Below, one piece after another: positions 1,537 to 62,455 of a DNA stretch of 64,000 bases (positions within the stretch are counted from its first letter, which is position 1; each line of letters starts with the position of its first letter). The translations under genes were made by a program, and so were the position numbers. The notes beneath the pieces were generated by a model. The model worked only from the letters and a program-made list of their open reading frames with translations, made no database searches and was not told where the DNA came from. Source of the DNA: Candidatus Brocadiia bacterium. GTDB taxonomy: Bacteria; Planctomycetota; MHYJ01; JACQXL01. The stretch lies in contig JBBAAP010000011.1 in assembly GCA_041658285.1 (NCBI GenBank), positions 3,308-67,307 on the forward strand. Direction: 5' to 3'.

Positions 1537-1577
1537 GGGGGGATACCCCCCCAGACTAGGGGGGGATACCCCCCCTC
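1537..1577. repeat. two adjacent G-run/C-run palindromes (GGGGGGGATACCCCCCC) separated by agacta
   Basis: Read directly in the sequence. Perfect inverted symmetry around ATAC/TATC. Lies immediately upstream of a tandem array. Confidence 0.8.
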
Positions 1578-1589
1578 ACTACTACTACC

Positions 1590-2025
1590 CCCGTATTACA
1601 CCTCTACCCGTTCGGTAATACACCTCTATCCGTTGGGTATTATACCTCTATCCGTTGGGTATTATACCTCTACCCGTTGGGTAATACACCTCTATCCGTT
1701 CGGTAATACACCTCTATCCGTTGGGTATTATACCTCTATCCGTTCGGTATTATACCTCTACCCGTTGGGTAATACACCTCTATCCGTTCGGTAATACACC
1801 TCTATCCGTTCGGTAATACACCTCTATCCGTTGGGTATTATACCTCTATCCGTCCGGTATTACACCTCTACTTGTTGGGTAATACACCTCTACCCGTTCG
1901 GTATTATACCTCTACCCGTTGGGTAATACACCTCTATCCGTTCGGTAATACACCTCTATCCGTTCGGTAATACACCTCTACCTGTTTGGTAATACACCTA
2001 GACTTGTTTGGAATTGCACCTCTAC
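1590..2025. repeat. direct tandem array, about 20 copies of a 22-bp unit (consensus about GGTAATACACCTCTATCCGTTC)
   Basis: Units alternate between minor variants (ccgttcggtaatacacc / ccgttgggtattatacc), visible by eye. No unique spacers between units. Confidence 0.9.
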
Positions 2026-2039
2026 TTTCCCGGCCCCGC

Positions 2040-2420: not shown

Positions 2421-2455
2421 TCGGTAGGGGGGGGGATACCTACCCCCTCCCCACT
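2421..2455. repeat. G-run/C-run palindrome (GGTAGGGGGGGGGATACCTACCCCCTCCCC)
   Basis: Imperfect palindrome of the same type as 1537-1577 and 53812-53852. Directly precedes the second tandem array. Confidence 0.7.
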
Positions 2456-2459
2456 TAAC

Positions 2460-2935
2460 CTCTACCCCCTATATCGATAACCCCTATAGGGAGTATGGAT
2501 AACTCCCATAGGTGGTGTCAGTTATCCCTATATGCGGTATAGATAACCTCTATTAGGTGTGTGAATTACTACTATAGGGCGTACTAATAATCCCCATAGG
2601 CGGTATCAATAACCCCTATATGGGGTGTGGATGACTACTATGGGACATATGGATAATACCTATAAGCAGTATCGATAACCCCTATAGGATATGTCGTAAA
2701 CCGGTATTAGGGATGTTGATAATTAGTATTAGGGGTATCGATAACCGGGACTGGGCGTATCGTAAACCAGGATTAGGGATATTGATAACCGGTATTAGGA
2801 ATGTCGATAACGGGTACTAGAGGTGCCGATAACCGACATTAGAAGTGTCGATAATCTCTATAGGGTGTATCGTAAACGGGTCCCAGGGATATCGTAAACC
2901 GGTACTAGAGGTATCAATAACCCCTACCACTGTAA
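2460..2935. repeat. direct tandem array, about 21 degenerate copies of a 22-bp unit (consensus about TATCGATAACCCCTATAGGGNG)
   Basis: Strict 22-bp periodicity (tatggataactcccataggtgg / tgtcagttatccctatatgcgg / tatagataacctctattaggtg ...). The first ~270 bp are about 90% identical to 53838-54115. Confidence 0.9.
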
Positions 2936-3057
2936 AAAAAATATGTGATGGCTACTGCCGTATTGCCGGGAATACAATTTATTCCAGCGGGGGTAGGCAG
3001 AGCTTTTCTTAAGGTCTTAGGCAATCACGCCGATAAAAGTATTTTACAGGAGAATAT

Positions 3058-16560: not shown

Positions 16561-16650
16561 ACGCGGAATCAGGAGGGTAGGGATAGGGTATGGGGAGGGG
16601 GTAGATACCCTACTCAGACGTAGGGGGTACGGTTATCGTATACCCCCATT
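16561..16650. repeat. G-run/C-run palindromes (gggtatggggagggggtagataccctac; gggggtacggttatcgtataccccc)
   Basis: Same architectural element as at 1537-1577, 2421-2455 and 53812-53852. Directly precedes a tandem array. Confidence 0.65.
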
Positions 16651-16885
16651 TGGTAAATATAGGTATACGGCTTGGTAAATCAAGGCTCACGGCTTGGCAA
16701 ATAGAGGTATACGGCTTAGTAAATCCAGGCGCACGGCTTGGTAAATAGAGGTATACGGCTTAGTAAATCCAGGTGCACGGCTTGGTAAATAGAGCTATAC
16801 GGTTTAGTAAATCCAGGTGCACGGCTTGGCAAATAGAGCTATACGGTTTAGTAAATCCAGGCGCACGACTTGGCAAATACTGGAG
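16651..16885. repeat. direct tandem array, about 10 copies of a 22-bp unit (alternating GGCTTGGTAAATAGAGGTATAC / GGCTTAGTAAATCCAGGTGCAC)
   Basis: 44-bp super-period, visible by eye. Confidence 0.85.
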
Positions 16886-36199: not shown

Positions 36200-36460
36200 T
36201 CAAACTGCTCCAATGTCTCATAGGACTGCTCCAATCCTATGTCAAATTATTATAATTGCTCATAGGACTGCTCTAATCCTATGACAAATCACTCCAACAT
36301 CTCACAGGATTGTTCAAATCCCTCAAGGGATTACTATAATCCCTCGCAGGATTACCACAATCCCTTGAAGGACTACTATAATCCTTTATCGGATTGCTAT
36401 AATCCCTCATAGGATTGCTAAAATCCTTCAAAGAATCACCATAATTATGTGAATATTATA
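36200..36460. repeat. degenerate direct tandem array (about 22-bp unit, ATAATCCCTCATAGGATTGCT-like, about 11 copies)
   Basis: Visible by eye. Units contain the internal palindrome TCCTATG/CATAGGA. Confidence 0.75.
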
Positions 36461-36689
36461 CCATCAGCCAAAGGCTGATCCGCCTCAGGTGGAAAGTACC
36501 GTTACTTTGTCAACTCCATTAGATGTTTTATCTAGCATATTTTTAACTATCTTACCAGTTTTATTCATCAACGGATAACATAGTCATCCAGCGGGGTCAA
36601 TAATTGAGTGTTGAATATCTATAATTAGTGTCTCGTTAGTAGGTAGGTGCGGCAGGCAGGTTCCCAGAAATCTAAATTGTGAAGTACCC

Positions 36690-45454: not shown

Positions 45455-45456
45455 AT

Positions 45457-47601: not shown

Positions 47602-47661
47602 GCTTACTGGGACTTATCCCCGAAGCCGTTAGGCGGAGTGGGATAATTTTAACCGCTGATT

Positions 47662-48141
47662 ATGCGTATTAATGCGGATAATATGAAGATAGTTAATATT
47701 ATAATTATCGTCGCGATAGGGGTGATGATGTCTTCGTGCCGGAAGGTGGATGATGTTCCGGTGGCGGGCTATATCACCAACCAGCCGGGCCTATCGGCCT
47801 ACAGCGACCCGTCCGGGCTGACCGAAGAGTACCGGCTCTGGCTTGACTCCGCGCCTTTGATAAACTATTCAGAAAATCTTAAATATGGCATCGTGGTCAT
47901 CAACGGGTTCCTGGCCCAGGGCGATGATGCGGTTATGACCAAGAAACTGTCCATTACGGTCAATCTGGCGGATATCAGGGATGACGGCGTCAAGAAGGTC
48001 GAACTGATGTCCGGGTATAAGTTGAAAGGCGTCCGGCACCGGCTCTCGGTGACTTTAAGCTTTATGGATTACAGCACCATCACGCCCGCCGGCGCTCCCG
48101 GCGCTACCAAGGATATAACTCTGCCGGTGTATGTATACTAA
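47662..48141 (+). CDS. hypothetical lipoprotein
   Basis: 159 aa with lipobox MMSSC. Confidence 0.4.
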   Translation: MRINADNMKIVNIIIIVAIGVMMSSCRKVDDVPVAGYITNQPGLSAYSDPSGLTEEYRLWLDSAPLINYSENLKYGIVVINGFLAQGDDAVMTKKLSITVNLADIRDDGVKKVELMSGYKLKGVRHRLSVTLSFMDYSTITPAGAPGATKDITLPVYVY

Positions 48142-48297
48142 ACATAGCAGCTTGCTTAAGAAAACAGTGCCTTGGAACCCGCTCAAATAAAGGGAAAGAA
48201 AATGTGGTGTCCTTATCCCTAAAGGGAGGCTTACGCTCCAGGAGGCCGGTAGGCTCTGTTTCCAGCCCCAACGATTATTTTTAAAGCAATAATTTTC

Positions 48298-48333
48298 TTG
48301 ACTTATTTAGTATTTTAGTGGATACTAAAATAC
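48298..48333 (+). promoter_or_regulatory. promoter-like TTGACT-17-GATACT overlapping a perfect 10-4-10 inverted repeat (GTATTTTAGT-ggat-ACTAAAATAC) that abuts the ATG
   Basis: Palindrome at 48310-48333 ends 1 nt before the start codon at 48334. Candidate ArsR-type operator, possibly on a leaderless transcript. Confidence 0.45.
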
Positions 48334-48675
48334 ATGAATAAAGCTTCGGGCATCCAGGAAATCACGAAAATATGCAAAGCCCTCTCGGTCGACAAGCGGG
48401 TGCGTATTATTCAGGTGCTGATGGGACGTTGTCTGTGCGTCGGCGCTATCTCATCGCAATTCGGAATATCGGCAGGGGCGGTATCGCAGCATCTCCGCAT
48501 TCTCAAAGAAGCCGGTTTGATAGAAGCGGAAAAACGCGGTTATTACGTCCATTATCGCATTAGAACCGGTACGCTGTCTAAATGGCGTTCCAGCATCGGG
48601 AAACTGATTGGAAAACCTATAGCCCCATTTAAAAATGTCAAGATGCAACGATGCACGATGTCTAAAATAAAATGA
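48334..48675 (+). CDS. ArsR/SmtB-family transcriptional regulator
   Basis: 113 aa. VRIIQVLMGRCLCVGAISSQFGISAGAVSQHLRILKEAGLI HTH with Cys pair. Confidence 0.8.
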   Translation: MNKASGIQEITKICKALSVDKRVRIIQVLMGRCLCVGAISSQFGISAGAVSQHLRILKEAGLIEAEKRGYYVHYRIRTGTLSKWRSSIGKLIGKPIAPFKNVKMQRCTMSKIK

Positions 48676-50051
48676 GCGCCAATAGAATATTCGCGGTGAC
48701 GTTTTCCTGGCTCTTGGCCATGAGCTATTTCGGCTGCGCCAGCCAGCCGGTCACCGGACCGGATTACAAGTCCTTGAACTCAAATCCCAAGTCGGCCCCG
48801 ATGCCTAGTTCCGTCCGTGGCGGCATAGCCCGTGGAAAATTGACATTGGATGATTGCCTGAGAATCGCCCTGGAGAACCATCCCAAATTGAAAATATACC
48901 AGACCAAAATCAAACAGCGTCAAGAATCGTACAATTCAGCAAAGGCGTTGGATTACCCGGTATTAAGTCTATCCACGAGTTACGACCGTTTATCCTACGT
49001 CTCGCCGGTCAAAAGGCAATTCCTGGGCGATTCGAACAATGATTACCAGGTCAGCCTGAACATTGAATCCCCGATATTCACCGGCGGCAGAATCACGGCC
49101 GAAAAGGAACAGGCTAGGTACTCGATAAACGGCGCCCGAGAGGATTATCGCGGCACCGAACTCGAAGTGATTCACGGCGTCAAATCGGTCTATTATAAAT
49201 TATCCGTGGCCGAAGAAATGGTTGCCATCCGGCAGGATTTATCGGCCAAGCTGAACGCTTTCTGGGAAATCGCCAAAGAGCTCAACCAGCGGATGAAAAC
49301 GCCCCGGGAAGAAGTGCTCCTGCGGATTGAAGTGCAAGTTAACAACGCCGAGCAGGAATTAATCAATGCCCAAACCAACGTCAGGATACTAAAAGAACTC
49401 CTGCTCAATGCCATGGGTTTGAACCCCGGCGGGCAAACGCAGATGGAAATACAGGCTATTGATATGTCCCGGCAATTACCCGGCGACCCAAGCCAGGAGA
49501 ATATGGATTTGAACGCAGGCAATAATCCCGACCTTTTTAAGCTGGAGCAGGAGCTGAAAAGGGCTCAGGAATCGGTCAGCCTGGCCCGGAGCGAGTATTT
49601 CCCGCAAGTCAAGTTGCGCGGTTCGTACGGCTACGAATGGGCGACGCTCCCGCCCGAAAGGGATACTTGGAGTTTCGGGCTGGTAATGAACCTGCCGCTT
49701 TGGGATTGGGGGCGTGTTAATTCCAAGGTCAAACAGGCCAACGCCTATCTGGAAGAAATAAACGCGACCAAGGAGTTCACGGAGCAAAAAGTATCACTCG
49801 AAGTCAAAAGCGCTTTCCTTGACTACCAATCAAGCCGGCAAAGGGCCCGGATTGCATATGACAGTTTGAGCAAGTCCAGCAAGAGCCTGGACATCTTCGA
49901 ACAAAGGTATAAAGACAACACCGTGACCAGCCTGGACGTTCTGGATGCCTACCAGTCCTACGCCACGGCCCGGTCGAATCACGCCCAGGCGGTATTGTCG
50001 ATGTATTTATCCCAGGCCGCGCTCGAACGGCTTTTAGGTAAAACCAAATGA
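48672..50051 (+). CDS. outer-membrane efflux protein (TolC/OMF family)
   Basis: 459 aa with lipoprotein-like signal. Two-fold repeat of the OEP motif, and coiled-coil segments. Confidence 0.75.
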   Translation: MSANRIFAVTFSWLLAMSYFGCASQPVTGPDYKSLNSNPKSAPMPSSVRGGIARGKLTLDDCLRIALENHPKLKIYQTKIKQRQESYNSAKALDYPVLSLSTSYDRLSYVSPVKRQFLGDSNNDYQVSLNIESPIFTGGRITAEKEQARYSINGAREDYRGTELEVIHGVKSVYYKLSVAEEMVAIRQDLSAKLNAFWEIAKELNQRMKTPREEVLLRIEVQVNNAEQELINAQTNVRILKELLLNAMGLNPGGQTQMEIQAIDMSRQLPGDPSQENMDLNAGNNPDLFKLEQELKRAQESVSLARSEYFPQVKLRGSYGYEWATLPPERDTWSFGLVMNLPLWDWGRVNSKVKQANAYLEEINATKEFTEQKVSLEVKSAFLDYQSSRQRARIAYDSLSKSSKSLDIFEQRYKDNTVTSLDVLDAYQSYATARSNHAQAVLSMYLSQAALERLLGKTK

Positions 50052-53000
50052 ACATAAGTGATCTGTCCATAAAAAGGCCCATCGGCGTCTTGGTGCTTAC
50101 ATTAACGGTGGTGATATTGGGACTTTTCTTCCTGAGCACGATTTCGGTCGACCTCCTGCCCCGGATAACCTATCCGATGGTCAGGATTGTGATTGACTGG
50201 AAAGGCGCCAGCCCCGAAGAAGTCGAAGAGAACATCACCAAGAAGGTCGAGGCCAGCGTCGCCACCACGGAAGACGCGGTCATGGTCATTTCCAACTCCA
50301 TCGAGGGCAATACTTCGTTAGAGGTTTCGTTCGAGTTCGGCAAGGATATGGATATCGCCCTCCAGGATACCCGGGCAAAGCTGGACCTGATAAAGAAAGA
50401 ACTGCCCAAAGACGCTGACGAACCCAAGATTTTCAAGGCCGACCCTTCGAACCTGCCTATTGTGGACGTGGCGGTCTTCTCCGAAACCAGGGACGAAAGA
50501 TACCTGCGTCAATGGGTGGAGAATGATTTAAGCAATTATTTTCTGGGCATCACCGGCCTGGGCTCGATCGTCACCAGCGGCGGGAAAATACGGGAAATAC
50601 AAATCGTATTCAACCAGGAGAAAATCCAGCGCTACGAGATTTCCACCGATCAGGTATTGGCCGCGCTCAAAGCTGGGAATATAGAATTACCCACCGGCCG
50701 GATAACCGCCGGCGAAAAGGAATACACCGTTAGGCTTTTAGCCAAGTTCAATAATATGGAAGAGATTAAAAATACCATCGTGGCTAACCGTGAAGGGTGG
50801 CTGATAAAGGTGGCCGATGTCGCCGAAGTGACCGATTCTTACGAAGAACAACGGGTGCTGACCAGGTTCAACAACCAGCCCTGCGTGCTGATGAGCTTCT
50901 TCAAACAGCCCAATGCCAACACCGTCAGGATAGTATCGGGCATAGAGAAAAAGGCCAAAGAGCTCAAAAGAAAGAAGATCATCCCCGACGACATAAACTA
51001 CGCCGTGGCCTCAAGCCAGGCCTATTACATCGTCAACTCCATCAATAACGTCAGCTCTTCGGCCATCATAGGCAGCATATTGGCCATTCTCGCCATATGG
51101 TTTTTCCTGCACGACATAAAAAGGACTTTGATTATCGGCATCGCCGTGCCGGTCAGCATCCTGGGCACATTCATCCTGATGGGGTTCTTCGACCTGACGC
51201 TCAACATATTCTCGTTGGGAGGATTGGTCCTGGCCGTCGGCATGCTGGTGGACAATGCCATCGTCATGCTTGAGAATATCACCAGGCACCAGAAAGACTC
51301 GGACGACCCCAAAGAGGGCGCCCGGTCCGGCAGCCGCGAGGTGATCAGCGCCCTGGCCGCATCCACCCTCACCAACGTCGCGGCCATCGTCCCCTTTTTC
51401 CTGATAACCGGGCTATCCGCACTGCTCTTCAGGGATTTTGTCATCACCATTACCGTGGCTTTTGTCATCTCATTATTGGTCAGCCTGACGGTCGTGCCGG
51501 CGCTCTCGGCCCACCTCATCAAACCCATAAACCCCAATGCCGCCCAGACCCTGTCCATGCGATTTCTCGACGGTCTGACGATATTTTATAAACGGCTGCT
51601 CCAGAGCGCATTGAAACACCGGGTAATATTGTTTGGCTCTGTCCTGATGATGCTGGCGTTCAGCCTGTTCCTGATCGGACGCATTGGCCGCGAGTTCCTG
51701 CCGCCCATGGATGACGGCAAGGTCACGGTCAAGCTCAAGATGCCCATCGGCACGGCCCTGGAAAAGACCAACCAGGTCACCAAAAAAATAGAAGAGCTGA
51801 TTAAGTCCATGCCCGGCGTGGAGAAATTCTATACTCAGGCCGGCGGGTATTGGTACCGCAAGAACATCTACGAAAAGGCCAACGAGTCTGAACTGCAAAT
51901 CCAGCTTCTGCCTAAGGCCAAACGCCCCTTAGCCACCAACGAATTCGTCAAGAAACTGCAGAAGAAAATAAAGGACCAATCCATTCCCAAGGCGAAAATC
52001 AAGGTGATGCGCACGCCCCTCAAAGGGATAAGAACCACCTCGACCTCGGATATCGACGTCCGGGTCAAAGGCTATAACCTTGATAAACTATACGGCATCG
52101 CCAGGGACATCCAGGACAAGATAAAGGATGTCGCCGGATTAAGCAACCTGGATATATCGATAGATTTATCCAAGCCGGAACTGCATATAATATTGGACCG
52201 GGAAAAGATGAGTTATTTCGGCCTGACCGCTAATAATGTCTCGGAGATGCTCAAAGCGGCGGTGGATGGCGCGGTTAACACCCAATTCACGGACAAAGAG
52301 TTGAACGTTGATTACGATATTCGGCTACTGGTCAACCCGCTGGCCTTGAACAGCAAAGACACGGTCGAAAATATCATCTTGTATCCGCCCAATAAAGCCG
52401 AGATACGGCTGAAAGAAATAGGCCGGGTGGAAATATCCGAAGGTCCGGTCCAGATAGACCGGGAAAACCAGGTCCGGCTGGTGGAAATAACCGGAGACGC
52501 CACCGGCAGAAACGTCGGCCTGATAACCAGTGATGTCAAGTCCCGGCTCGGCGCCTTAACACTGCCCCAGGGATACACCATAAACTACGGCGGCGAAGCA
52601 GAATCCATCAGCCAGTCCAACAATCAGCTAATCATCGTCATTATCCTGGCCATATTCCTGGTCTTTGTGGTCATGGCCGTCCAGTACGAATCCTTGATAG
52701 ACCCGCTGGTCATAATGATTACCCTGCCGCTGACCCTGATAGGCGCGGCTGTTTTTATGGCCGCCACCGGAACCACCTTCGGGGCCACGGCCTTTTTAGG
52801 GCTGATTCTGCTGGTTGGCATAGTCGTCAACAACGCCATCATCCTGGTCGAATACATCAATATCCTGCGCCGGGAGCAGGGGCGGAACATTCACGACGCG
52901 GTCTTAGAGGCGCCGCCCATAAGGTTGCGCCCGATTCTTATGACTAACCTGACCACCATAGTCGGGCTGTTGCCGATTGTCTTGGGCTGGGGCGAAGGAC

Positions 53001-53110
53001 TGGAAATGCTCCAGCCATTAGCCATAGTCATCATCGGCGGCCTGGGGTTCGGTATGGTGCTGACGCTTTTTGTGATTCCGGCAGTTTACCTGACGCTTCA
53101 TAAACATTAG
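50048..53110 (+). CDS. RND efflux transporter permease (AcrB/CzcA superfamily)
   Basis: 1020 aa. 12-TM topology with two large periplasmic loops. TM4 GLVLAVGMLVDNAIVMLENI. Overlaps the OMF gene by 4 nt. Confidence 0.9.
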   Translation: MNISDLSIKRPIGVLVLTLTVVILGLFFLSTISVDLLPRITYPMVRIVIDWKGASPEEVEENITKKVEASVATTEDAVMVISNSIEGNTSLEVSFEFGKDMDIALQDTRAKLDLIKKELPKDADEPKIFKADPSNLPIVDVAVFSETRDERYLRQWVENDLSNYFLGITGLGSIVTSGGKIREIQIVFNQEKIQRYEISTDQVLAALKAGNIELPTGRITAGEKEYTVRLLAKFNNMEEIKNTIVANREGWLIKVADVAEVTDSYEEQRVLTRFNNQPCVLMSFFKQPNANTVRIVSGIEKKAKELKRKKIIPDDINYAVASSQAYYIVNSINNVSSSAIIGSILAILAIWFFLHDIKRTLIIGIAVPVSILGTFILMGFFDLTLNIFSLGGLVLAVGMLVDNAIVMLENITRHQKDSDDPKEGARSGSREVISALAASTLTNVAAIVPFFLITGLSALLFRDFVITITVAFVISLLVSLTVVPALSAHLIKPINPNAAQTLSMRFLDGLTIFYKRLLQSALKHRVILFGSVLMMLAFSLFLIGRIGREFLPPMDDGKVTVKLKMPIGTALEKTNQVTKKIEELIKSMPGVEKFYTQAGGYWYRKNIYEKANESELQIQLLPKAKRPLATNEFVKKLQKKIKDQSIPKAKIKVMRTPLKGIRTTSTSDIDVRVKGYNLDKLYGIARDIQDKIKDVAGLSNLDISIDLSKPELHIILDREKMSYFGLTANNVSEMLKAAVDGAVNTQFTDKELNVDYDIRLLVNPLALNSKDTVENIILYPPNKAEIRLKEIGRVEISEGPVQIDRENQVRLVEITGDATGRNVGLITSDVKSRLGALTLPQGYTINYGGEAESISQSNNQLIIVIILAIFLVFVVMAVQYESLIDPLVIMITLPLTLIGAAVFMAATGTTFGATAFLGLILLVGIVVNNAIILVEYINILRREQGRNIHDAVLEAPPIRLRPILMTNLTTIVGLLPIVLGWGEGLEMLQPLAIVIIGGLGFGMVLTLFVIPAVYLTLHKH

Positions 53111-53123
53111 AAAAGGAGAGGCT

Positions 53124-53444
53124 ATGAAAATAGGAGTGGTAATTTCGAGTAATGATGCCGAGACCTGCTGGAATGCGCTGAGATACGCCAACTATTGCAT
53201 CGGGCAGAAGGATGAAGTCAGGGTATTCCTTATGGGTAAAGGAGTCGAATACCAGAAGGTCAGCACCGACAAATTCAACAACATCGAGCAAGCCGCTAAA
53301 ATCATCAAATCAGGCGGCAAGGTTTTCGCCTGCGGAACGTGCATCAAATCCCGGGAGCAGGAAAGCTCGGAAATGTGCCCGATGTCGACCATGAAGGATA
53401 TGTACGAGATTGTCAAAGAGAGCGACAAGGTCGTGACTTTCTGA
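53124..53444 (+). CDS. DsrE/DsrF-like sulfur-relay fold protein
   Basis: 106 aa. MKIGVVISSNDAETCWNALRYA...FACGTC motif. RBS AAGGAGAGG upstream. Confidence 0.6.
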   Translation: MKIGVVISSNDAETCWNALRYANYCIGQKDEVRVFLMGKGVEYQKVSTDKFNNIEQAAKIIKSGGKVFACGTCIKSREQESSEMCPMSTMKDMYEIVKESDKVVTF

Positions 53445-53570
53445 TTTATTTCGACGGTCAAGCGAGACACCTGCCTGCGGCGCACAGGCAGAGACCAGAG
53501 CCTACCGGCTCGCATGTTATTCCACCATCAACACTTCGAGAAATATTAATATTCCCCCATTCCCATACCT

Positions 53571-53710
53571 TCCCCGGGTAGTATGGGTAACTTCCCCCGG
53601 TAGTATAGGCAACCTCTCCGGGTAGTATAGGTAACCTCCCCGCCTAGTATAGGTAACTACCCCCGGTAGTATAGGTAATATCCCCCCGTAGTATAGGTAA
53701 TATCCCCGTG
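53571..53710. repeat. direct tandem array, about 6 copies of a 22-bp unit (CCCGGTAGTATAGGTAACCTCC-like)
   Basis: Visible by eye. Confidence 0.8.
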
Positions 53711-53811
53711 AACGCTAGGGACACATCCCATCCCCGGTAACGCACTAACCAGGCCCCTTCCAGGCCGTACTTTTCTCGGTTTCCGCTCAAATCCTTATTT
53801 AATTCGAGATA

Positions 53812-53852
53812 GAGGGGGGGGGAGATACCTACCCCCCTCCCCCCTAACCTCT
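53812..53852. repeat. G-run/C-run palindrome (GGGGGGGGGAGATACCTACCCCCCTCCCCCC)
   Basis: Homologous in type and position to 2421-2455. Confidence 0.7.
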
Positions 53853-53859
53853 ACTTCCT

Positions 53860-54478
53860 ATATCTATAACCCCTATATAGAGTATGGATAACTCCCATAG
53901 GTGGTGTCAGTAATTCCCATAGGCGGTATAGATAACCTCTATGAGGTGTGTGAATTACTGCTATAGTGAGTACTAATAATTCCCATAGGCGATATCAATA
54001 ACCCCTGTAAGGGGTGTGGATGACTACTATGGGACATCTGGGTAATACCTATAAGCAGTATCGATAATCCCTATAGGATATGTTGTAAACTGGTATTAGG
54101 TGTATCGAAAACTGGGACTAGGCATATCGAAAACGGGGATAGATGATATCGGAAACGGGGATAGGGTGTATCGGAAACCGGGACTAGGCATATCGAAAAC
54201 GGGGATAGATGATATCGGAAACGGGGATAGGTGATATCTAAAACGGGGATAGGGTGTATCGAAAACGGGTAATAGGTGTATCGAAAACGGGGATAGGGTG
54301 TATCGAAAACCGGTAGTGGGTGTGTCGAAAATGGGGATTGGGCGTATCGAAAACCGGGGCTAGGTGTATCGAAAACGGGGATAGGTGATATCTAAAATGG
54401 GGATAGGTGATATCGAAAACGGGGATTGAGCGTATCGAAAACCGGTAGCGGGTGTATCGAAAACCCATACTACCATCA
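53860..54478. repeat. direct tandem array, about 28 copies of a 22-bp unit (TATCGATAAC...TATAGG grading into TATCGAAAACGGGGATAGGGTG)
   Basis: Strict 22-bp phase throughout. The first ~12 units are about 90% identical to 2460-2725. The spurious minus-strand 76-aa ORF at 54238-54468 lies within this array. Confidence 0.9.
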
Positions 54479-54516
54479 AAAAAATAAGTGATAATAAGAT
54501 GGTAGTGGATGGGGTT

Positions 54517-57342
54517 CTACTTCGGAAGCGGCACATCCGGCGCTAACTGCTTGACCTTGGTTGCCATATCCGCGGCCTCTTTGAGCCGGCCTTTTAACCT
54601 GTAGAAGTTCATCAGGTTATAATAGCCCAGATAGTCGTTGGGCTTATACTTTACGAGCATCTGGTTGGTGCGCTCGAACATTAGCTCCTGGTTGGGGTCG
54701 CGCATTACTTCCTGCCCGCTCTTGTGCACTAAAGCGGCCTTATAATAGTTTTCCACCGCTTCGTTGATTTTACCCTGGTCTAGGTAGATGTCGCCCAGAT
54801 GGGCGAAGGTCTCGGAGAATTCGGGGTCTATCCGGGCGGCCGCCTGGTATCGCTCGATGGCATTGGCCAGGTCGCGCTGTTCGTAATAGGTCTCGCCCCA
54901 TTCGTTCATCAGCGAGGGGTTGTGCGGGCTGAGCTTGCAGGCGGCCCAGTAATACTTGTGCGATTGGTCGTAGCGCTCCTGCCGCTCGGCCGGATTGTTT
55001 GCCGCCTGCGCCCAGACCCGGTAGAACCTGCCGATGTTGGCGTTGCGGGTGGGGCTGAGCCGTTCGTATTCGATGGACTTCATCAGGTACTTGTTGCATT
55101 CGGCCAGCAGTTCGGCCCGCTTGCGGGCGTCTTTTTCGATGTAGTATTTTTCCAGGTAGACCCGGGCGATGGACGCGGCGTAGTAGCTGTTGTCCATCGA
55201 ATGCTTGACCGCCTCCTGGTAGTGGTAAAGGACCGTGTCCCATTGCCGGGACTTCTCGTGCGACACGCCTATCTTATAGAGGATGTTGCCCCGGATGGGG
55301 TCGATGTTGGTATAGAATATGAATATCAGCCCGGCCAGGATGCCGACGACAGAGATGCCAATCGTGGACGACTTTATGAATGTTGCGCCGGATGTTTGTC
55401 CCGGCAGCGCCCAGGCCAGGGTGATGATGCCTATCAGGAGCCAGACGCTCAGGAAGGTGATGGTGTCTATGGGCGAATTGAACGGCGGCAGGAACGAGAA
55501 GAGTATGAATACGAATATGCCGGCGCCGACAGCCGCGCCGATGGCGGCCGTGATAATCGAGCCCAGCTTGGCTCCGATCGTGAAATACCAGACCGTAGCC
55601 AACGCCAGCCAGCTCAGGCCGAGCAGTACAATCGCCCGGGTTATCGGGCCGGAGGTCTCAACCGAGTACTGGAAGAAGAACAGGTCAAAGGCGAAGAGGG
55701 AGAGAATCAGGACCAGAATAATGATGAATGTCCCTCGGGAATACTCGGGATAAATTGAATTATGGGTGCTGAATGATGGATTAATATTGCTGCTTTTTTC
55801 TTGCGGAGTTTGTTCATTCTGCATTCCGAATTCTACATTCCGAATTAGGACGGCCAGGAATATCCAGAAATATGTCCGCGAGGCGGTCAGGTCGATGCCG
55901 AACTGTGTCTCGACGAAGTGGCCGATGATAGCGCTGAAAATCCCGATTTGCCAAATAGGTACTGAGAGTTTATTATCTATGATCTCCGTGTGCTCAGTGC
56001 CTCTGCGGCTAACTAAATAATAGAAAAGGTAGAGCACGGCGCCCATGACCAGTCCGATGGGTACGCCGATGGAGGAATAGATGAACGAGCCTTGGACCAG
56101 GTGCGGGATGGCCAGCCCGCTCAGTCCGCCCAGGGCCAGTAAGATTATCAGAATCAGTGACTGGGGCTTGGACGCAACCAGTTTGAGATACCGGAAGAAC
56201 CAGAAGATAATCCCGGCGAAGAGGAGCAGGTAGAGCGTTGCGCCTATGAGCCCGTTGGTGATGAGCGTGTCGAAGAGCTCGTTATGCGCCCGGTCAGGGA
56301 AGGCTATCTTATGCTCGCTGCGCACCAGCTCGGGCGGAGCATATTTGTGGTAGGGAATGAACATATTCTCCGGCCCGTAGCCGACCAGCGCCCGGTTGGT
56401 GTCGGACCTGGCCATATTGGTGACGCCTTCCCAGATGAGCAGCCTGACTTTGGCGGCCGGCTCTTTGGATTCGAATATCTGGCCGAACCGGCCGAACATC
56501 GGCTTGATGCCGGACAGCGGCGAGTTGGGCACGTTGAGCAACAGCAGGAACCCGACCAGCAGACCGGCTCCGGCATAGGTAACATAGGCCAGCCATTTCC
56601 GGCCGTAGACGGCGGCGCTTAAGGTGATAAAGAAGAACAGCCCGGTCATCAGGCCCAGGAACGGGCCGCGGCTCTGGGTCAGCCACAGGCTGAGCATTTG
56701 CAGGACCAATAATGCGGCCAGGACGATATGCCTGGCTCGGATGGGTAGTCTGAACTCGTAGAGCAGACTGGCTATTGTCACGGGGATGACCATAATCAGG
56801 TAAGAGCCCAGGAAGATGGGGTTGCCCAGGGTCGAGCCGATACGGCGCGAGAAGTCGGTGTCCCAGGTGAGCGGGTCGAGCTTGAGCTTCTGGGCGAAGC
56901 CGTATAATATTATGGGGATGCTGGTCAGGAGCACGGCGGTGATGATGCGTTTTATTTGTTCGGCGGACTTGAGCGATGACAGGGTAATGATGAATACGAC
57001 GAAATAGCCCAGCAGGGTGTAGGTTCCCTGTCCGCGTGAGTAGCTTCCCCACCAGCTGGTATGGAAGGCCACGCCGATGATGCTGGAAAACAGGTAGCTG
57101 GCGAAGAGCAATATGGCCGTGACGGGGATGAAACCGCGCCAGGCGGAGTCGCCGGGGCCGGACTCGGCCCGCCTGATGGCGTAGGCCGCCAGCATAATCA
57201 CGGCGATGGAGCGGATCAGGGTGCTTTTGTCCGGGTCGAATACGGTGTTAGAATGGTAGTTAAAGAAGAGCGGAGCGATTATCAGGGCCAGCAGCCAGCA
57301 GGCCTCGATGACCTTGTCGCAGAATAAGCCGACCTTAGACAT
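54517..57342 (-). CDS. O-antigen ligase/polymerase-like multi-TM protein fused to C-terminal TPR repeats
   Basis: 941 aa. More than 10 TM segments with a Wzy_C-like RGPFLGLMTGLFFF region. The C-terminal third is TPR (repeated AxxYxxLG patterns). Confidence 0.6.
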   Translation of the reverse strand: MSKVGLFCDKVIEACWLLALIIAPLFFNYHSNTVFDPDKSTLIRSIAVIMLAAYAIRRAESGPGDSAWRGFIPVTAILLFASYLFSSIIGVAFHTSWWGSYSRGQGTYTLLGYFVVFIITLSSLKSAEQIKRIITAVLLTSIPIILYGFAQKLKLDPLTWDTDFSRRIGSTLGNPIFLGSYLIMVIPVTIASLLYEFRLPIRARHIVLAALLVLQMLSLWLTQSRGPFLGLMTGLFFFITLSAAVYGRKWLAYVTYAGAGLLVGFLLLLNVPNSPLSGIKPMFGRFGQIFESKEPAAKVRLLIWEGVTNMARSDTNRALVGYGPENMFIPYHKYAPPELVRSEHKIAFPDRAHNELFDTLITNGLIGATLYLLLFAGIIFWFFRYLKLVASKPQSLILIILLALGGLSGLAIPHLVQGSFIYSSIGVPIGLVMGAVLYLFYYLVSRRGTEHTEIIDNKLSVPIWQIGIFSAIIGHFVETQFGIDLTASRTYFWIFLAVLIRNVEFGMQNEQTPQEKSSNINPSFSTHNSIYPEYSRGTFIIILVLILSLFAFDLFFFQYSVETSGPITRAIVLLGLSWLALATVWYFTIGAKLGSIITAAIGAAVGAGIFVFILFSFLPPFNSPIDTITFLSVWLLIGIITLAWALPGQTSGATFIKSSTIGISVVGILAGLIFIFYTNIDPIRGNILYKIGVSHEKSRQWDTVLYHYQEAVKHSMDNSYYAASIARVYLEKYYIEKDARKRAELLAECNKYLMKSIEYERLSPTRNANIGRFYRVWAQAANNPAERQERYDQSHKYYWAACKLSPHNPSLMNEWGETYYEQRDLANAIERYQAAARIDPEFSETFAHLGDIYLDQGKINEAVENYYKAALVHKSGQEVMRDPNQELMFERTNQMLVKYKPNDYLGYYNLMNFYRLKGRLKEAADMATKVKQLAPDVPLPK

Positions 57343-57349
57343 AAATTAA

Positions 57350-57500
57350 TATTACCACGAAGGCACGAAATAACAAAAACACGAAGTTTAGAGTCTTCTT
57401 AATTTAGTGTTTTCGTGGTATTCTAATAGTCTTTTTTTTTCCTAACTATCTTATTCCTTTTCCTTATTTTTCCCTTTCGAGCTTTCGTGGTAAAGGTATT
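57350..57500. promoter_or_regulatory. cluster of TACCACGAA / TTCGTGGTA inverted-repeat half-sites in the upstream region of the minus-strand O-antigen-ligase-like gene
   Basis: ttaccacgaaggcacgaaataacaaaaacacgaag ... gttttcgtggtattc ... gctttcgtggtaaagg. Confidence 0.35.
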
Positions 57501-57508
57501 CTTGTTGT

Positions 57509-58711
57509 TTATTTCAGGAGCGCCTCTATTTTGGACCTGAGCACCGATTCTTCCTGGTAGCCGACCAGGTATTCGCGCACCTTGCCTTCCTTGTCGATGA
57601 TAACCAGTGTCGGGAAGGCCGTGATACGGTAGCTCCGGCAGGCCGAGCCGTCGTCGGTTAAGGTGGTGAACGAATATTTGTTCTCCTTAACGAACTGGAT
57701 GGGTTTCTCGGGCGGTTCGTTATTGACGCCGAATACGGCCAGGCCTTTGGCCTTGAGCTCGTCGTTAAGTTTCTGGATATGGGGCAGTTCTTTGCGGCAG
57801 GGCGGGCACCAGGTGGCCCAGAAATCCAGCAGGACGACCTTGCCCCGGTAATCCTTGAGCGATACCTTGGCGCCTTCGAGCGAGACCAGCGCTAGGTCCG
57901 GAGCCGGCTGGCCGACCAGGTCGCCGCCTTCTTCCTTTTTAAACTCCTTGACCAGCTTGGCGTCCTTGGGTGGGCTGAAGGCGAACGCGTTAGCCGCTAT
58001 GGGTTGGTTGACCTGGCGGTTTGAATAGGTGATGTCTATGGTCACGCGCTGGCTGATTGGACGGCCGTTGCTGTCGGTCGTATCTTTAAGCATATTGGTC
58101 AGGTAACGGTGCAGCAGGCTGTCTTCCTTGCCCAGCCAGATGCGGGCGGTCACTCGGTCCCAGGCCTCGGGCGATTTCTCGATTTGGTCTTCGACCTCGA
58201 TGACGTCTAATTCCTTGCCGTCAATCTTGTCGGTGCCGGAGTACCTGAGCGATTTGGTCACTTTGATAAATTCGCCGTAGTAGTTCTCGGTAAAGATATG
58301 CTCCACGGACGGGTCCAGGCTGGCCCACTGCTTGATGTCGCTCATATTTATCTGGGCCGGCGCGGGCTCGACCGTATACTGGCCGTAATCGGAGATGTAT
58401 TTCAGGAGCGTCTTGCCGTCCGAGACGAACTCGGTCCGGCCCGAATCGTTGGCCCGGGTCAGCCGGACCATATTGGGGCGGCTGATGATGGCGTTGTTGG
58501 TTACCTTGTCGGTGCGCTTCTGGCCGGACTGCTCCTGGGTTATTTGCACCGTGGCCGTGCCCTGGTATGATTTCAGCTCACGGTAGGTCTGGAACATCTT
58601 CTTGAGGATGGCGTCGGCCTTGGGGTCGATGTTCGGCTTGGCGTCTTCGGCCTGAACCATAGCGGCGATGAAACACACGGCCAATAGCGCGGCTACCAGC
58701 AGTTTCTTCAT
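57509..58711 (-). CDS. periplasmic two-domain protein: N-terminal LolA-like/uncharacterised domain plus C-terminal TlpA-like thioredoxin (WCPPC)
   Basis: 400 aa with signal peptide. VVLLDFWATWCPPCRKELPHI thiol-disulfide oxidoreductase motif. Confidence 0.7.
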   Translation of the reverse strand: MKKLLVAALLAVCFIAAMVQAEDAKPNIDPKADAILKKMFQTYRELKSYQGTATVQITQEQSGQKRTDKVTNNAIISRPNMVRLTRANDSGRTEFVSDGKTLLKYISDYGQYTVEPAPAQINMSDIKQWASLDPSVEHIFTENYYGEFIKVTKSLRYSGTDKIDGKELDVIEVEDQIEKSPEAWDRVTARIWLGKEDSLLHRYLTNMLKDTTDSNGRPISQRVTIDITYSNRQVNQPIAANAFAFSPPKDAKLVKEFKKEEGGDLVGQPAPDLALVSLEGAKVSLKDYRGKVVLLDFWATWCPPCRKELPHIQKLNDELKAKGLAVFGVNNEPPEKPIQFVKENKYSFTTLTDDGSACRSYRITAFPTLVIIDKEGKVREYLVGYQEESVLRSKIEALLK

Positions 58712-58738
58712 ATAATTTCCTCTCTAATCAGCGTAATA

Positions 58739-59209
58739 CTATTTCTTTAACTCGGCGCACACCTTTTCCAGCGAGCGCGAGATGACCTTGTGTCCGGAGA
58801 GGGCGGGCATGAAGTTGGTGTCGCCCTGCCAGCGGGGCACCAGGTGGATATGCACGTGCGAGAGCAGCCCGGCGCCGGCGTCGGCCCCGATGTTGATGCC
58901 GATGTTGAACCCGTCCGGCTTCATGCATTTCTTTATCCGTTTTTTCATCTCCACGGTCAGCGCCATCATCTCGCTGATTTCGGCCGGGGTAAGGTTGTCG
59001 ATGTCGGGCTTATGGGCGATGGGGCAGATGAGCAGGTGCCCGGCGTTATAAGGGAACTTGTTCATTATGACGAAGGCCAGCTTGCCTTTCTTGATGACTA
59101 GATTCTTCTTGTCCGTTTTCTTGATGGCATCGCACAGGAAACAGCGGGTGCGGTGCGCCGGTTTGACGTTGATGTAGCCGCTGCGCCAGGGCGCCCAGAG
59201 GTGTTTCAT
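58739..59209 (-). CDS. HIT-family (histidine triad) hydrolase
   Basis: Start re-called at MKHLWAP (RBS AGGAGTC upstream; the ORF track extends to 59308). HVHIHLVPRW histidine triad. Confidence 0.8.
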   Translation of the reverse strand: MKHLWAPWRSGYINVKPAHRTRCFLCDAIKKTDKKNLVIKKGKLAFVIMNKFPYNAGHLLICPIAHKPDIDNLTPAEISEMMALTVEMKKRIKKCMKPDGFNIGINIGADAGAGLLSHVHIHLVPRWQGDTNFMPALSGHKVISRSLEKVCAELKK

Positions 59210-59219
59210 ATCTGACTCC

Positions 59220-59459
59220 TTATCCGCAAGACGAACAACTGCCCGAGCCGCAGGAACCGCAGGAGGACTTGCCGTGTCCGCCTGAGGACGGTACCGCAGA
59301 CGAATCACCCGAACCGCCCATCCTGAAGCTTGATAATTGCTTGGTCACCTTATGGTTTTTGCAGTGCGGGCAGGCCAGGTTCTTTTCATCGGCCGGCGAG
59401 CGGATGAGCAACTCGAATATCTTCTTGCACTTGGCGCATTCAAATTCGTATAATGGCAT
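59220..59459 (-). CDS. FmdB-family zinc-ribbon protein
   Basis: 79 aa. MPLYEFECAKCKK...CPHCK plus Gly/Ser/Cys-rich tail. Confidence 0.8.
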   Translation of the reverse strand: MPLYEFECAKCKKIFELLIRSPADEKNLACPHCKNHKVTKQLSSFRMGGSGDSSAVPSSGGHGKSSCGSCGSGSCSSCG

Positions 59460-59462
59460 ATA

Positions 59463-60005
59463 TTATGGCAGATAGCTCATGGGGTTGACCGGTTGTTCAT
59501 TGTGAAACAGCCGGAAGTGCAGTTCGGGCGTTTCAGCCCGGCCGGTCTGTCCGGCCTTGGCGATGATGTCTCCCTGCTTGACTACCTGGTTTAGCTGGAC
59601 CAGTATTTCCGAGTTATAGGCGTAGACCGAGACGAAACCGTCCGTGTGTTTGATATTGATGATTTTGCCGTAGCCCTCAAAACGCTCGGAGACGAAACTG
59701 ACCACGCCGCTTTTGACGGCCTTGACCGGCTCGCCGGCCTTGGCCTTGATGTTGATGCCGCCCGTGCCCATGTTGTTCAGTACCGTATTCTTTATGGGCC
59801 AGATGAATCCGGATTCCGAGACCAGGTTTTCGGGAATCTTGATTTCGGTATCGTCCGGGTTGGCGCTGGCCGGTTTGGTGCTGATGATGGATTCGAGTTC
59901 GCTGTTCAGGCGCGCTTCCTCATCGCCGGGCAGGCGGGGAACGGTGGCGCAACCGGTCAGCACCAGGATGGATATTGCAACGGTCAACATACGGATATTA
60001 CGCAT
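59463..60005 (-). CDS. M23-family peptidoglycan metalloendopeptidase lipoprotein
   Basis: Start re-called at MRNIRMLTVAISILVLTGC (lipobox). GINIKAKAGEPVKAVKSGVV ... HTDGFVSVYAY...GQTGRAETPELHFRL M23 core. Confidence 0.8.
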   Translation of the reverse strand: MRNIRMLTVAISILVLTGCATVPRLPGDEEARLNSELESIISTKPASANPDDTEIKIPENLVSESGFIWPIKNTVLNNMGTGGINIKAKAGEPVKAVKSGVVSFVSERFEGYGKIINIKHTDGFVSVYAYNSEILVQLNQVVKQGDIIAKAGQTGRAETPELHFRLFHNEQPVNPMSYLP

Positions 60006-60055
60006 AATTTCTTTCCGATCCTTCTGCGCCATCGGCGCCATCAGGATCTAACTGC

Positions 60056-60085
60056 CGGTAATTCACTTCGTTCAAACCGGCAGTA
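60056..60085. repeat. hairpin CTGCCGGTAATTCACTTCGTTCAAACCGGCAG immediately 3' of tRNA-Gly
   Basis: Loop is identical in sequence to the 37860-37880 element. Possible tRNA 3' processing or terminator structure. Confidence 0.5.
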
Positions 60086-60090
60086 AAGAG

Positions 60091-60162
60091 AGCGGGCGAT
60101 GGGATTCGAACCCACGGCGACCAGCTTGGGAAGCTAGCATTCTACCGCTGAATTACGCCCGC
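60091..60162 (-). tRNA. tRNA-Gly (anticodon CCC)
   Basis: Manual fold of the reverse complement: acceptor GCGGGCG/CGCCCGC, D-arm ATTC-AGCGGTA-GAAT, anticodon stem CTAGC/GCTGG with loop TTCCCAA, T-arm GTGGG-TTCGAAT-CCCAT. Confidence 0.8.
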
Positions 60163-60291
60163 CTGTTCCACCAGGCCAGAATATGTAATCAGCGCCCATT
60201 TGTCAATAATTTGTTGACAGGAAATATAATTTTCATATAGTCAATAGGTTGGTATTTAACCGATTTCTAATAATTAGTATAGGAGGAAACA

Positions 60292-61074
60292 ATGACTGAT
60301 GTCTTATTGAAGGATTTAGTGGAAAGCGGGGCGCATTTTGGGCATAAAGTAAGCCTGTGGAACCCCAAGATGAAGCAATATATTTACGGTTCCAAGAAGC
60401 GGATTCATATCATCGACGTGCGCGAGACCGTCAAGGGCATGGTCAATGCGGCGCATCTGTTGAAACGGATAGTCCAGAAGGGCGGCGAGGCCATTATTGT
60501 TGGAATCAAGCGCCAGGCCCAGCATATCGTAAAAAGCGAAGCCACCCGTTGCGGGATGCATTACGCCAGCGACCGCTGGATCGGCGGAACGCTTACTAAT
60601 TTCGATACCATCAGGCTGCAGATCAGGAAGCTGTTTGAGATGGAGAAGAAAGCGACGGACGGCACTTTATCGCTTTATAAGAAGAAAGAACAGGTCGTAT
60701 TCCGCCGTGAGCTGGAAAGGCTTAGGATTAATCTGGGCGGTATCCGGAATATAACCAGGCTGCCGGCCGTGCTGGTAGCCGTTGATTATAAGAAGAGCAA
60801 GCTGGCCATCAAGGAGGCTCAGAAGATAGGTATCCCGTCAATCTGCCTGATAGATACCGACGGCGATCCTTCTGATGTGACGCTGGCTATTCCGATAAAT
60901 GACGACGGCACCAGGAGCATTCAGATAGTCATATCCTACCTGGCTAACGCCATCATTGAGGCCAAGAGCAAGATGGAAGTCAAGCCGTTGGAAGGCAAGA
61001 ACGCACCGGTAAAGGCGGTCAAGGTGATTGCCAAGGCCCATACCGCTGCTAAGCCGGAAAAAGCAAAAGGCTAA
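60292..61074 (+). CDS. rpsB: 30S ribosomal protein S2
   Basis: 260 aa. LLEAGAHFGH-type N-terminus (LVESGAHFGHK). Conserved gene order rpsB-tsf-pyrH-frr. Confidence 0.95.
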   Translation: MTDVLLKDLVESGAHFGHKVSLWNPKMKQYIYGSKKRIHIIDVRETVKGMVNAAHLLKRIVQKGGEAIIVGIKRQAQHIVKSEATRCGMHYASDRWIGGTLTNFDTIRLQIRKLFEMEKKATDGTLSLYKKKEQVVFRRELERLRINLGGIRNITRLPAVLVAVDYKKSKLAIKEAQKIGIPSICLIDTDGDPSDVTLAIPINDDGTRSIQIVISYLANAIIEAKSKMEVKPLEGKNAPVKAVKVIAKAHTAAKPEKAKG

Positions 61075-61126
61075 ATTCACAGGGTGCGGGATTGAGTTTG
61101 AGTATTAGAAAGAATGAGAGGATATC

Positions 61127-62442: not shown

Positions 62443-62455
62443 TAGGAGCATTTTT

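Follow-up and report, generated by a model that had tools for sequence, protein, structure and literature searches.

A candidate modular interspersed repeat built on in-register 22-bp arrays in a deep planctomycetal lineage

Within a stretch of 64,000 nucleotides from Candidatus Brocadiia bacterium, a member of the Planctomycetota (assembly GCA_041658285.1, contig JBBAAP010000011.1, positions 3,308 to 67,307 of the forward strand; the window, hereafter), we analysed an array element at 53569-54514 (locus B), which has a paralogue at 2427-2949 (locus A) and relatives in other genomes. On balance, and with some reserve, we favour the reading that locus B belongs, as one copy among several, to a modular interspersed repeat that is non-coding and specific to the lineage: a dispersed bacterial satellite of the BOX/REP kind, which would have been copied between loci and remodelled in register, with its unit acting as a binding module. 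The pair is a real non-coding paralogous pair, which belongs to a dispersed head-array-tail family with conserved ends. The element runs from a linker with two small hairpins and a T-run, through a TTTAAT(TCG) motif and a G-run/C-run head, into an in-register 22-bp array and a short conserved tail. Around this family we find a lineage-wide 21/22-bp rule, an association of arrays with G/C-structured blocks, empty orthologous sites and a preference for the 3' ends of genes.

Tandem arrays were called by Tandem Repeats Finder, and the sequence at 53300-54800 and 2200-3200 was read directly (coordinates in Table 1). An earlier note, made from the letters of this DNA, had described below a DsrE-like gene a short 22-bp array, a G9...C6TC6 palindrome and a phased main array of about 28 units. 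All three were recovered, the last as 29 successive 22-bp windows (53842-54479) in exact register and with no indel, and the flanking genes that it named (DsrE, an O-antigen-ligase-like gene on the opposite strand, here found to have Wzy_C and TPR domains, and wecB) were confirmed as well. No open reading frame of at least 80 aa crosses array A or B. Upstream of the TTTAAT motif, the linker comprises two 4-bp hairpins, with slight covariation, plus the T-run. The core of the upstream short array (GGTAGTATGGGT/GGTAGTATAGGT) is the reverse complement of the tail motif of the element. At the other end, a strong hairpin forms near the end of the Wzy gene, its 3' arm made of the last array unit plus the tail and its 5' arm (GATGGTAGTGGATGGGG) placed immediately after the Wzy stop codon; on the minus strand this region (54450-54520) folds at -19.8 kcal/mol (z -4.3) and is followed by UUUU, which makes it terminator-like. 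This hairpin is probably the terminator of the Wzy gene, with part of it supplied by the repeat.

The relationship between the two loci is precise. Both MAFFT and blastn align 2427-2814 with 53816-54203 without gaps, and at a fixed offset of 51389 the block 2427-2714 matches 53816-54103 at 259 of 288 positions (89.9%), just as the earlier note had claimed when it put the identity of the first ~270 bp at about 90%. Units 2-12 correspond one to one between A and B with 82-100% identity, in comparison with a mean of 61% for non-corresponding units. The 27 bp upstream of the shared block are only 44% identical and, beyond a breakpoint that falls at a unit boundary after the head and 12 units (A 2714/2715, B 54103/54104), identity drops to 61%, the ordinary unit-to-unit level. 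The tails are nonetheless homologous (2890-2949 against 54433-54492, 76.7%; ...CC(C/A)TAC(TA)CCA... followed by an A7-8 run), so that the whole element is paralogous and the distal array was remodelled in each copy, rather than a block being merely extended. Sharing of the head and 12 units at 90% identity bears out the claim that the arrays are copies of one element type; of the proposal that a block was duplicated and then expanded independently, the unit-level turnover in the distal parts stands, and the limits of the duplicated block do not. Locus A holds 22 units and locus B 29, free of indels although the units diverge by ~40%. The drift of the distal units noticed earlier is also real: those of B approach a common sequence, TATCGAAAACGGGGATAGGGTG, and have a higher-order period of 66 bp. 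Similarity between units is 75% in the distal part of B and 59% in its proximal part, and the 44/66-bp higher-order repeats found in distal parts, together with this greater homogeneity, point to in-register unequal exchange acting mainly there.

Mis-joining of a single sequence during assembly, which the note had raised as a possible refutation, does not explain the pair. Within the shared block, 29 positions distinguish A from B; window positions 44517-64000, and with them all of locus B, are overlapped with one mismatch by an independent ENA MEGAHIT contig; and Logan contigs (SRR8449812), which break inside the arrays at 2796 and 54202, join the distal end of each array to its own flanking gene. 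Altogether, these results indicate that A and B are neither an assembly duplicate nor a mis-join.

Relatives of the element occur in other genomes. A scan of species-representative genomes, which do not include the source genome, with a two-unit pattern returned mostly chance single matches and one true relative, GCA_043808305.1 (L028; ribosomal protein S2 87% identical), where a 2.2-kb island holds five successive 21/22-bp arrays, the last of them with a head (GGAGGGGGGGGATACCTACCCCCCTCCCCCCTAACC), 17.5 units of GTATCGCAAACGGGTACCAGGC and a tail like that of B. A metagenome scan with the head pattern led to another match, L056, with 91% identity to B across 98 bp of pre-head and head; this element follows an RCC1-repeat gene, already its first units are of the type seen in distal B, and the sequence ends before the tail. 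ERZ928008 (L122; S2 75%) carries a matching pre-head motif together with a head of related type, and its array has 11 units of TATGGTTACCCCTATGCGGGGG. A run of 26 nt in the head, GATACCTACCCCCCTCCCCCCTAACC (53824-53849), is the same in B, L056 and L028. The copies amount to at least two in this chromosome, A and B, 51 kb apart in the window, plus those in at least three other genomes of the lineage, all with unrelated, non-orthologous flanking genes, and conserved 5' and 3' modules surround differing arrays: head and tail in A, B and L028, pre-head and head in L056, and a related head in L122. The duplication between two loci envisaged in the note therefore holds for A and B as paralogues, and has to be widened to a dispersed family, given that head, linker and tail also occur in other genomes at unrelated loci. 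A covariance model of the pre-head and head built from B, L056, L028, L122 and A gave the five sequences used for training 36.6-90.1 bits (E 1e-5 to 5e-18), as expected by construction; over 221 kb of window and clade loci it yielded no other strong match, and the heads at 1505-1583 and near 16550 reached only ~18 bits.

As a neutral yardstick for the conservation of the modules we took four-fold degenerate sites of five orthologous genes, which are identical between the window and GCA_043808305.1 at 463 of 735 positions (63%). Against this synonymous rate, the heads of B and L028 are identical at 43/48 positions (binomial p = 3e-5) and their tails at 62/76 (p = 4e-4), while the pre-head and head of B and L056 agree at 89/98 (p = 3e-10, with the 63% rate borrowed from the L028 comparison). 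These p-values are optimistic because the segments were selected by BLAST. Even so, it is informative in itself that non-coding DNA can be aligned at non-orthologous sites, and the ends of the element are constrained or recently spread while the interior array can vary freely, as would be expected for a modular repeat of the non-autonomous kind.

The period of the arrays reaches further than the sequence of their units. A census of 183 kb from five lineage genomes (unit of at least 10 bp, length of at least 60 bp) gave 20 of 23 arrays with a period of 21, 22 or 66; of the remaining three, two (periods 93 and 135) fall within called genes. The control, unrelated viral contigs totalling 524 kb, had periods of 21/22/66 in only 2 of 11 arrays (Fisher p = 1.8e-4 against the lineage). 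Arrays of 21/22-bp period with various unit sequences, beside G/C-rich or G-quadruplex-type blocks, make up ~3% of the sampled lineage DNA, and the unit consensus is mostly unrelated from one array to another, so that the period is common and the sequence is not. A common origin of all arrays was in consequence rejected: one unit family is common only to A, B, L028 and L056 (plus L122), array 1 shares its own with L058, and the rest are unrelated. Inside the TATCGAWAAC family the columns T1, T3, A8, A9, A15 and G19 are near-invariant, the motif TAT[C/G]G[A/T][T/A]AAC is kept in four genomes and, between the units of L122 and A, one base was lost and one gained with the 22 bp maintained. The units of the 21-bp arrays show dyad symmetry and most 22-bp units do not; reverse-complement self-identity is significant in A-proximal units (p = 0.014) and the 21-bp arrays, and not significant in B-proximal, B-distal and A-distal units or in arrays 1, 4 and 6. 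A CRISPR array, with its period above 50 bp and unique spacers, was discarded, as the units abut at 22 bp and both unit halves vary equally.

In every genome, the arrays are adjoined by G-run/C-run hairpins or G-quadruplex-type motifs. Over the same 183 kb, 7 of 13 G4/C4 motifs (G-quadruplex motifs and their C-rich counterparts) lie within 150 bp of an array, a zone that represents 5.8% of the DNA (p = 3e-6). Fold z-scores of the heads are uninformative in this regard, because the shuffles keep the G and C runs. In the window, G-quadruplex motifs with at least four runs of three or more G occur just upstream of A (2327-2351) and of array 4 (16575-16601), and only one other plus-strand motif of this kind is found in the 64 kb.

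More distant genomes (L059, L060 and L062; S2 55%, Wzy 42-45%) also contain 21-/22-bp arrays beside G-rich blocks or G/C palindromes. At an S2 identity of only 55%, L062 has islands at 1449-2686 (1.2 kb) and 16577-17313 (0.7 kb) with up to six successive arrays, of 27, 21, 42, 21, 22 and 22 bp period, and G-quadruplex-type blocks at their ends. In L060 (13834-15151), a 15.5 x 22-bp array (CTTGTATCACAGGCCCGCTGGG) with a G/C palindrome head of 12-bp arms lies 90 bp after an orphan ParB gene (ParB_N + HTH_ParB), a layout that resembles sopB-sopC of the F plasmid. Outside the lineage, metagenome-assembled genomes (MAGs) of Prevotella/Bacteroidaceae (L005, L011, L012, L015, L027 and L050) contain AT-rich 22-bp arrays of 3-6 units with ATCGTAAAC, some just upstream of genes and without a G/C head, which probably represent an unrelated regulator-site array.

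With respect to genomic position, locus B lies between the 3' ends of the convergent DsrE and Wzy_C/TPR genes and for that reason cannot work as a promoter element of the DsrE or the Wzy gene. In GCA_043808305.1 the Wzy orthologue has retained its synteny with S2, EF-Ts, HIT and redoxin genes, and there the next gene follows directly, with no array. Likewise, in two relatives (L121 8171-11098 and L122 7993-10916) wecB comes after rplK-rplA-rplJ with a 31-105-bp spacer free of arrays, and its downstream synteny (holA, radC, gatC) is kept in both. In L121, a gene with DnaA domains is located ~2 kb upstream of wecB. In the window the rplK-rplA-rplJ neighbourhood has been replaced by an unannotated 385-aa gene and a 1.8-kb repeat island (1282-3057), so this island marks a rearrangement breakpoint; as the orthologous loci of the relatives are array-free, A and B are both at synteny breakpoints, which argues against locus-specific regulation and phase variation and fits mobile or recombinogenic DNA. 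Conservation of the arrays in place at orthologous sites was rejected on the same data. Among the 11 islands for which both flanks could be determined, six are convergent and five co-directional, and the only divergent case is a 2-unit miniature. The same gene-orientation bias is known for the pneumococcal BOX/RUP/SPRITE repeats and for REPs (PMC3049150, PMC3733652). An origin from a plasmid, phage or virus was also rejected, since blastn gave no similarity to plasmid or phage records and the viral contigs had neither the head nor arrays of a comparable kind.

Table 1. Coordinates, in the window, of the modules of locus B, its paralogue, the flanking genes and the other arrays
Feature	Position	Strand	Remarks
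Upstream short array, 6.4 x 22 bp, consensus CTTCCCCGGGTAGTATAGGTAA, 83% matches	53569..53708	+	Tandem Repeats Finder, phased units, inverted-repeat pairs I4, I7, I8
Linker / pre-head module of B	53709..53813	+	conserved in L056 and twice in L028
Linker hairpin GGGA-CACA-TCCC	53718-53729	+	
Linker hairpin GGCC...GGCC	53752-53766		then TTTT at 53771-53774
Conserved motif TTTAATTCG in B linker	53798-53806		aligns with TATAAT 2409-2414 of locus A
Head: hairpin G9-AGATACCTA-C6TC6	53814..53844	+	
Block common to A (2427-2714): head + 12 units	53816..54103	+	89.9% identical, gapless
Distal array, ~16.5 units of TATCGAAAACGGGGATAGGGTG	54104..54464	+	66-bp higher-order repeat, locus-B-specific
Tail ACCCATACTACC + A7 run	54463..54514	unassigned	pairs with GATGGTAGTGGATGGGG (54498-54514); homologous to A and L028 tails
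Locus A, paralogous copy	2427..2949	+	head 2427-2452, 22 in-phase units, tail with A8 run; upstream of wecB
DsrE family gene	53124-53444	+	flanks B
Wzy_C/TPR protein, 941 aa	54517-57342	-	flanks B
Epimerase_2, UDP-GlcNAc 2-epimerase (wecB)	3058-4152	+	downstream of A
Two G6ATAC7 hairpins then 18.5 x 22 bp (GTAATACACCTCTATCCGTTCG) (array 1593-1999)	1537..1999	+	unit family also in L058
G4-type block + hairpin then 10 x 22 bp (array 4, 16650-16879)	16572..16879	+	44-bp higher-order repeat
10 x 21 bp array	16215-16429		precedes the 16572-16879 element
11 x 21 bp array	36208-36445		
Miniature: head-like palindrome GGGGGTATATACAC...GTATACCC + two 22-bp units	6590-6712		divergent spacer, gatC / response-regulator gene

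The rest of the window is ordinary chromosome, with genes for EF-G, S2, EF-Ts, pyrH, RRF, a secretin, a lipid A acyltransferase, an AcrB-type pump and HEAT-repeat proteins, and four large non-coding islands (1282-3057, 16118-17021, 36077-36689 and 53445-54516) occupy 6.8% of it. Ribosomal protein S2 has four relatives with at least 71% identity and no other match above 59%, which indicates a deep and poorly sampled lineage. Many of the genes adjoining islands have, by eye, signal-peptide or lipoprotein-like N-termini (window 124-1281, 15497-16117 and 17022-18278; L028 1165-1965; L059 19761-20324; L062 17390-18985), which may be due simply to the abundance of such genes in Planctomycetota, and no protein family shared among the flanking genes, as a possible partner of the arrays, was found. 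Two smaller repeats were also observed: a hairpin, CCCCGCTAAAGCGGGATAA, that occurs twice within 70 bp (window 2037-2109), and a 13-mer, ACTGGCACTAACC, present in intergenic DNA at window 2078 and 37881 and once at L028 4248, for which six matches with up to two mismatches were found against 1.1 expected.

How such an element might arise and work can be sketched as follows. Its spread would involve either duplicative recombination or transposition in trans, the ends being the recognised or constrained parts, and the array would then be remodelled by in-register unequal exchange or replication slippage, a process that may yield the 44/66-bp higher-order repeats and homogenise the distal units while the diverged proximal ones stay stable. 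The unit is probably a binding module for a DNA-binding protein aligned on one face of the helix, as suggested by the constant period, equal to two turns of the helix, and by the few invariant columns of the unit, and the structured head could act as a boundary or nucleation point. Several observations weigh against this reading. No protein binding the units was identified and, given that the unit sequences of the other arrays are unrelated, one sequence-specific protein cannot explain them all. Substitutions between A and B avoid the high-information unit columns only as a trend (9/143 against 13/99, p = 0.11), so that purifying selection on these columns, as judged from the A/B differences, was rejected. 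Intrinsically curved DNA was rejected too, as the real arrays are no more curved than column-shuffled ones in a self-made wedge-model path calculation (Bolshoy/Trifonov parameters; 10.5 or 11 bp/turn). Moreover, the window has no transposase, integrase or reverse transcriptase gene (nor any rep or par gene), although a transposase could act in trans, the candidate terminal inverted repeats are short (in B, 12/12 complementary positions between the first unit of the upstream array and the tail; in A, only 8 nt, GGTAGGGG / CCCCTACC), and no target-site duplication is visible by direct reading at the candidate ends, where the relatives are rearranged. The lineage sample, of ~220 kb, comes entirely from short-read MAGs. 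Finally, the order of the parts, with a terminator-like hairpin, a -10-like motif, a 5' hairpin, a body and a 3' hairpin, would suit an RNA gene equally well.

This last alternative, which we regard as unlikely, would make the element a repetitive non-coding RNA gene with TTTAAT/TATAAT as its -10, a 5'-protective G/C hairpin, 22-nt repeats working as a sponge or scaffold for an RNA-binding protein, and a tail that terminates transcription. In its favour, the upstream hairpin and T-run would stop incoming transcription, and in an alignment of five elements, all with a -10-like motif 7-18 nt ahead of the head, the TATAAT of A coincides with the TTTAAT that the others conserve; A also has a 10/12 sigma-70-like site whose perfect TATAAT ends 12 nt before the head. 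On direct reading, the T that interrupts the C-run pairs with G in three heads (G-U) and with A in that of L028 (A-U), on the plus strand only; the tail hairpin is stable, and all four heads of the window are oriented with the GC skew and with most genes. Promoter and terminator scans, however, stayed overall at the level of chance, and in none of B, L056, L028 and L122 could a good -35 element be found. No Rfam family reached threshold (best PrrB/RsmZ, 19.4 bits against a gathering score of 44, on the opposite strand; the window's two tRNAs are its only features above threshold). The fold of the head plus 12 units does not favour either strand (z -2.3 and -2.6), and a strand-specific structured RNA was rejected on both grounds. 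So was a CsrA-type sponge, since by sequence reading GGA is frequent in the distal units of A and B and absent from those of L028 and L122, that is, not kept across the family; and a period of 21/22 nt across unrelated units has no RNA reason. A selfish or neutral satellite without host function, in which G/C hairpins and G-quadruplex-prone blocks stall replication and provoke slippage, and arrays persist where they do least harm, downstream of genes, is again improbable; in its favour are the array-free orthologous sites and the synteny breakpoints at arrays, the enrichment at gene 3' ends as in the parasitic BOX, RUP and SPRITE repeats, the tight association with G-quadruplex-type motifs, higher-order repeats typical of unequal exchange, and the weak evidence for selection on unit columns. 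Slippage alone, on the other hand, leaves without explanation a period of 21/22 bp across unrelated unit families, 22 to 29 diverged units free of indels, a unit motif kept in four genomes, and a head, linker and tail that outdo synonymous sites across genomes.

Rather more doubtful is a bolder proposal, namely that these are genome-wide, helically phased satellite arrays, nucleated by G-quadruplexes or hairpins, which would serve as a loading platform for a chromosome-architecture protein, much as satellite chromatin does but in a bacterium, or else would be built by a mechanism adding steps of 21/22 bp regardless of sequence. An array of the titration, centromere or iteron type for a replication or partition protein (DnaA-box-like or ParB-bound, as datA, sopC or parC) seems very improbable. 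Cooperatively bound tandem sites of 20-22 bp do occur in plasmid centromeres and iterons, and array A (2494-2846) includes six minus-strand 9-mers that differ from the DnaA box TTATCCACA by one mismatch and lie at multiples of 22 bp from one another, within a total of 13 DnaA-box-like sites with up to two mismatches in 500 bp (mean 1.9); the DnaA-domain gene near wecB in L121 and the array of L060 just downstream of an orphan ParB gene go in the same direction. Against it, no array has a match to the consensus box TTWTNCACA and B has only two near-matches, six or more arrays with unrelated units are found per 64 kb, the window lacks rep, par and dnaA genes, and no plasmid or phage record is similar. 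An oriC or DnaA-box cluster was rejected for these near-matches only, the missing dnaA gene of the window and the absence of a GC-skew switch. Least credible of all is a phase-variation (contingency) locus, in which the number of units would alter the expression of wecB and the Wzy-like gene. The earlier note had suggested a test for such a link with the envelope-polysaccharide genes that adjoin the two copies; several other islands adjoin secreted or lipoprotein-type genes, and A is upstream of wecB with a promoter-like site before it. This link finds no support, as B sits between two convergent 3' ends, the wecB and Wzy orthologues of the relatives are array-free, no reading frame crosses A or B, and comparable arrays flank ribosomal, ParB, nuclease and glycosidase genes. 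Known contingency repeats, moreover, have units of 1-9 bp placed within promoter spacers or reading frames. There is no sign that the element switches neighbouring cell-envelope genes, and phase variation is not supported.

The interest of a dispersed modular repeat goes beyond this window. Non-coding satellite families are rare in prokaryotes, and here a whole uncultured lineage has ~3% of its sampled DNA in such islands. If the period corresponds to a protein footprint, the arrays would point to a hitherto undescribed nucleoid or chromosome-organising system; if it corresponds to the generating mechanism, that mechanism would be new. In practical terms, the arrays break short-read assemblies, with Logan contigs ending inside them and many orthologues on contigs of 3-6 kb, and both these breaks and the synteny breakpoints matter for MAG quality and for genome rearrangement in Planctomycetota.

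Among known systems, a survey reported long-repeat non-coding satellite families only in Leptospira interrogans and Methanocella conradii (PMC6749651). As in those two, dispersed and related non-coding tandem arrays are found on a prokaryotic chromosome; their units, however, exceed 30 nt, whereas the present arrays keep to a unit of 21/22 bp, lie between conserved ends (head and tail) and are associated with G-quadruplexes. The repeats of Borgs, extrachromosomal elements of Methanoperedens, are near-perfect, have many unit lengths and often lie in genes with units in multiples of three. They have been described as pervasive, fast-evolving, intergenic, and recently and independently formed (PMC9879509). 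Both cases offer pervasive intergenic tandem direct repeats of an uncultured lineage; unlike those of Borgs, the present arrays are chromosomal, with diverged units of a fixed 21/22 bp and families kept between genomes. The 22-bp iterons of R6K, sopC of F and parC of R1/pSK41 are helix-phased direct repeats of ~20-22 bp bound cooperatively by proteins and, by analogy, could model how the 22-bp units might work, although here no rep or par gene is adjacent in the window and many arrays per 64 kb occur in chromosomal housekeeping DNA.

The pneumococcal BOX elements, with a boxB unit of ~45 bp, are arranged in a similar way, with conserved 5' and 3' modules that enclose tandem internal units in varying number, and reach sizes of several hundred bp. 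In Streptococcus pneumoniae and S. suis, these modular repeats (boxA - boxB(n) - boxC) have predicted stem-loops, occur in many copies and are over-represented between convergent genes (PMC3049150). The likeness is one of architecture, with no relationship in sequence to be expected, and the elements described here differ in their 22-bp units, up to 29 of them, in the G-run/C-run head, in having several unit families with one period, in the Planctomycetota host, and in showing no demonstrated target-site duplication or insertion-sequence-like terminal inverted repeat. REPs, for their part, are short extragenic sequences downstream of genes, in convergent or co-directional spacers and sometimes in tandem, which are present in the PVC superphylum (PMC3733652). 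With REP/BIME clusters, made of palindromic repeats that bear a GTAG or CGTC tag, our elements share the location 3' of genes and the GTAG/CTAC motifs in the head loop, the tail and the upstream array; in contrast, their 22-bp units are mostly non-palindromic and arranged as direct head-to-tail repeats instead of alternating inverted dimers, and no RAYT gene was seen here. By architecture and genomic behaviour, pneumococcal BOX and REP/BIME are therefore the closest known systems, and the element is a member of neither; what is new relative to both is the fixed period, the G-quadruplex/hairpin head and the conservation across a deep lineage.

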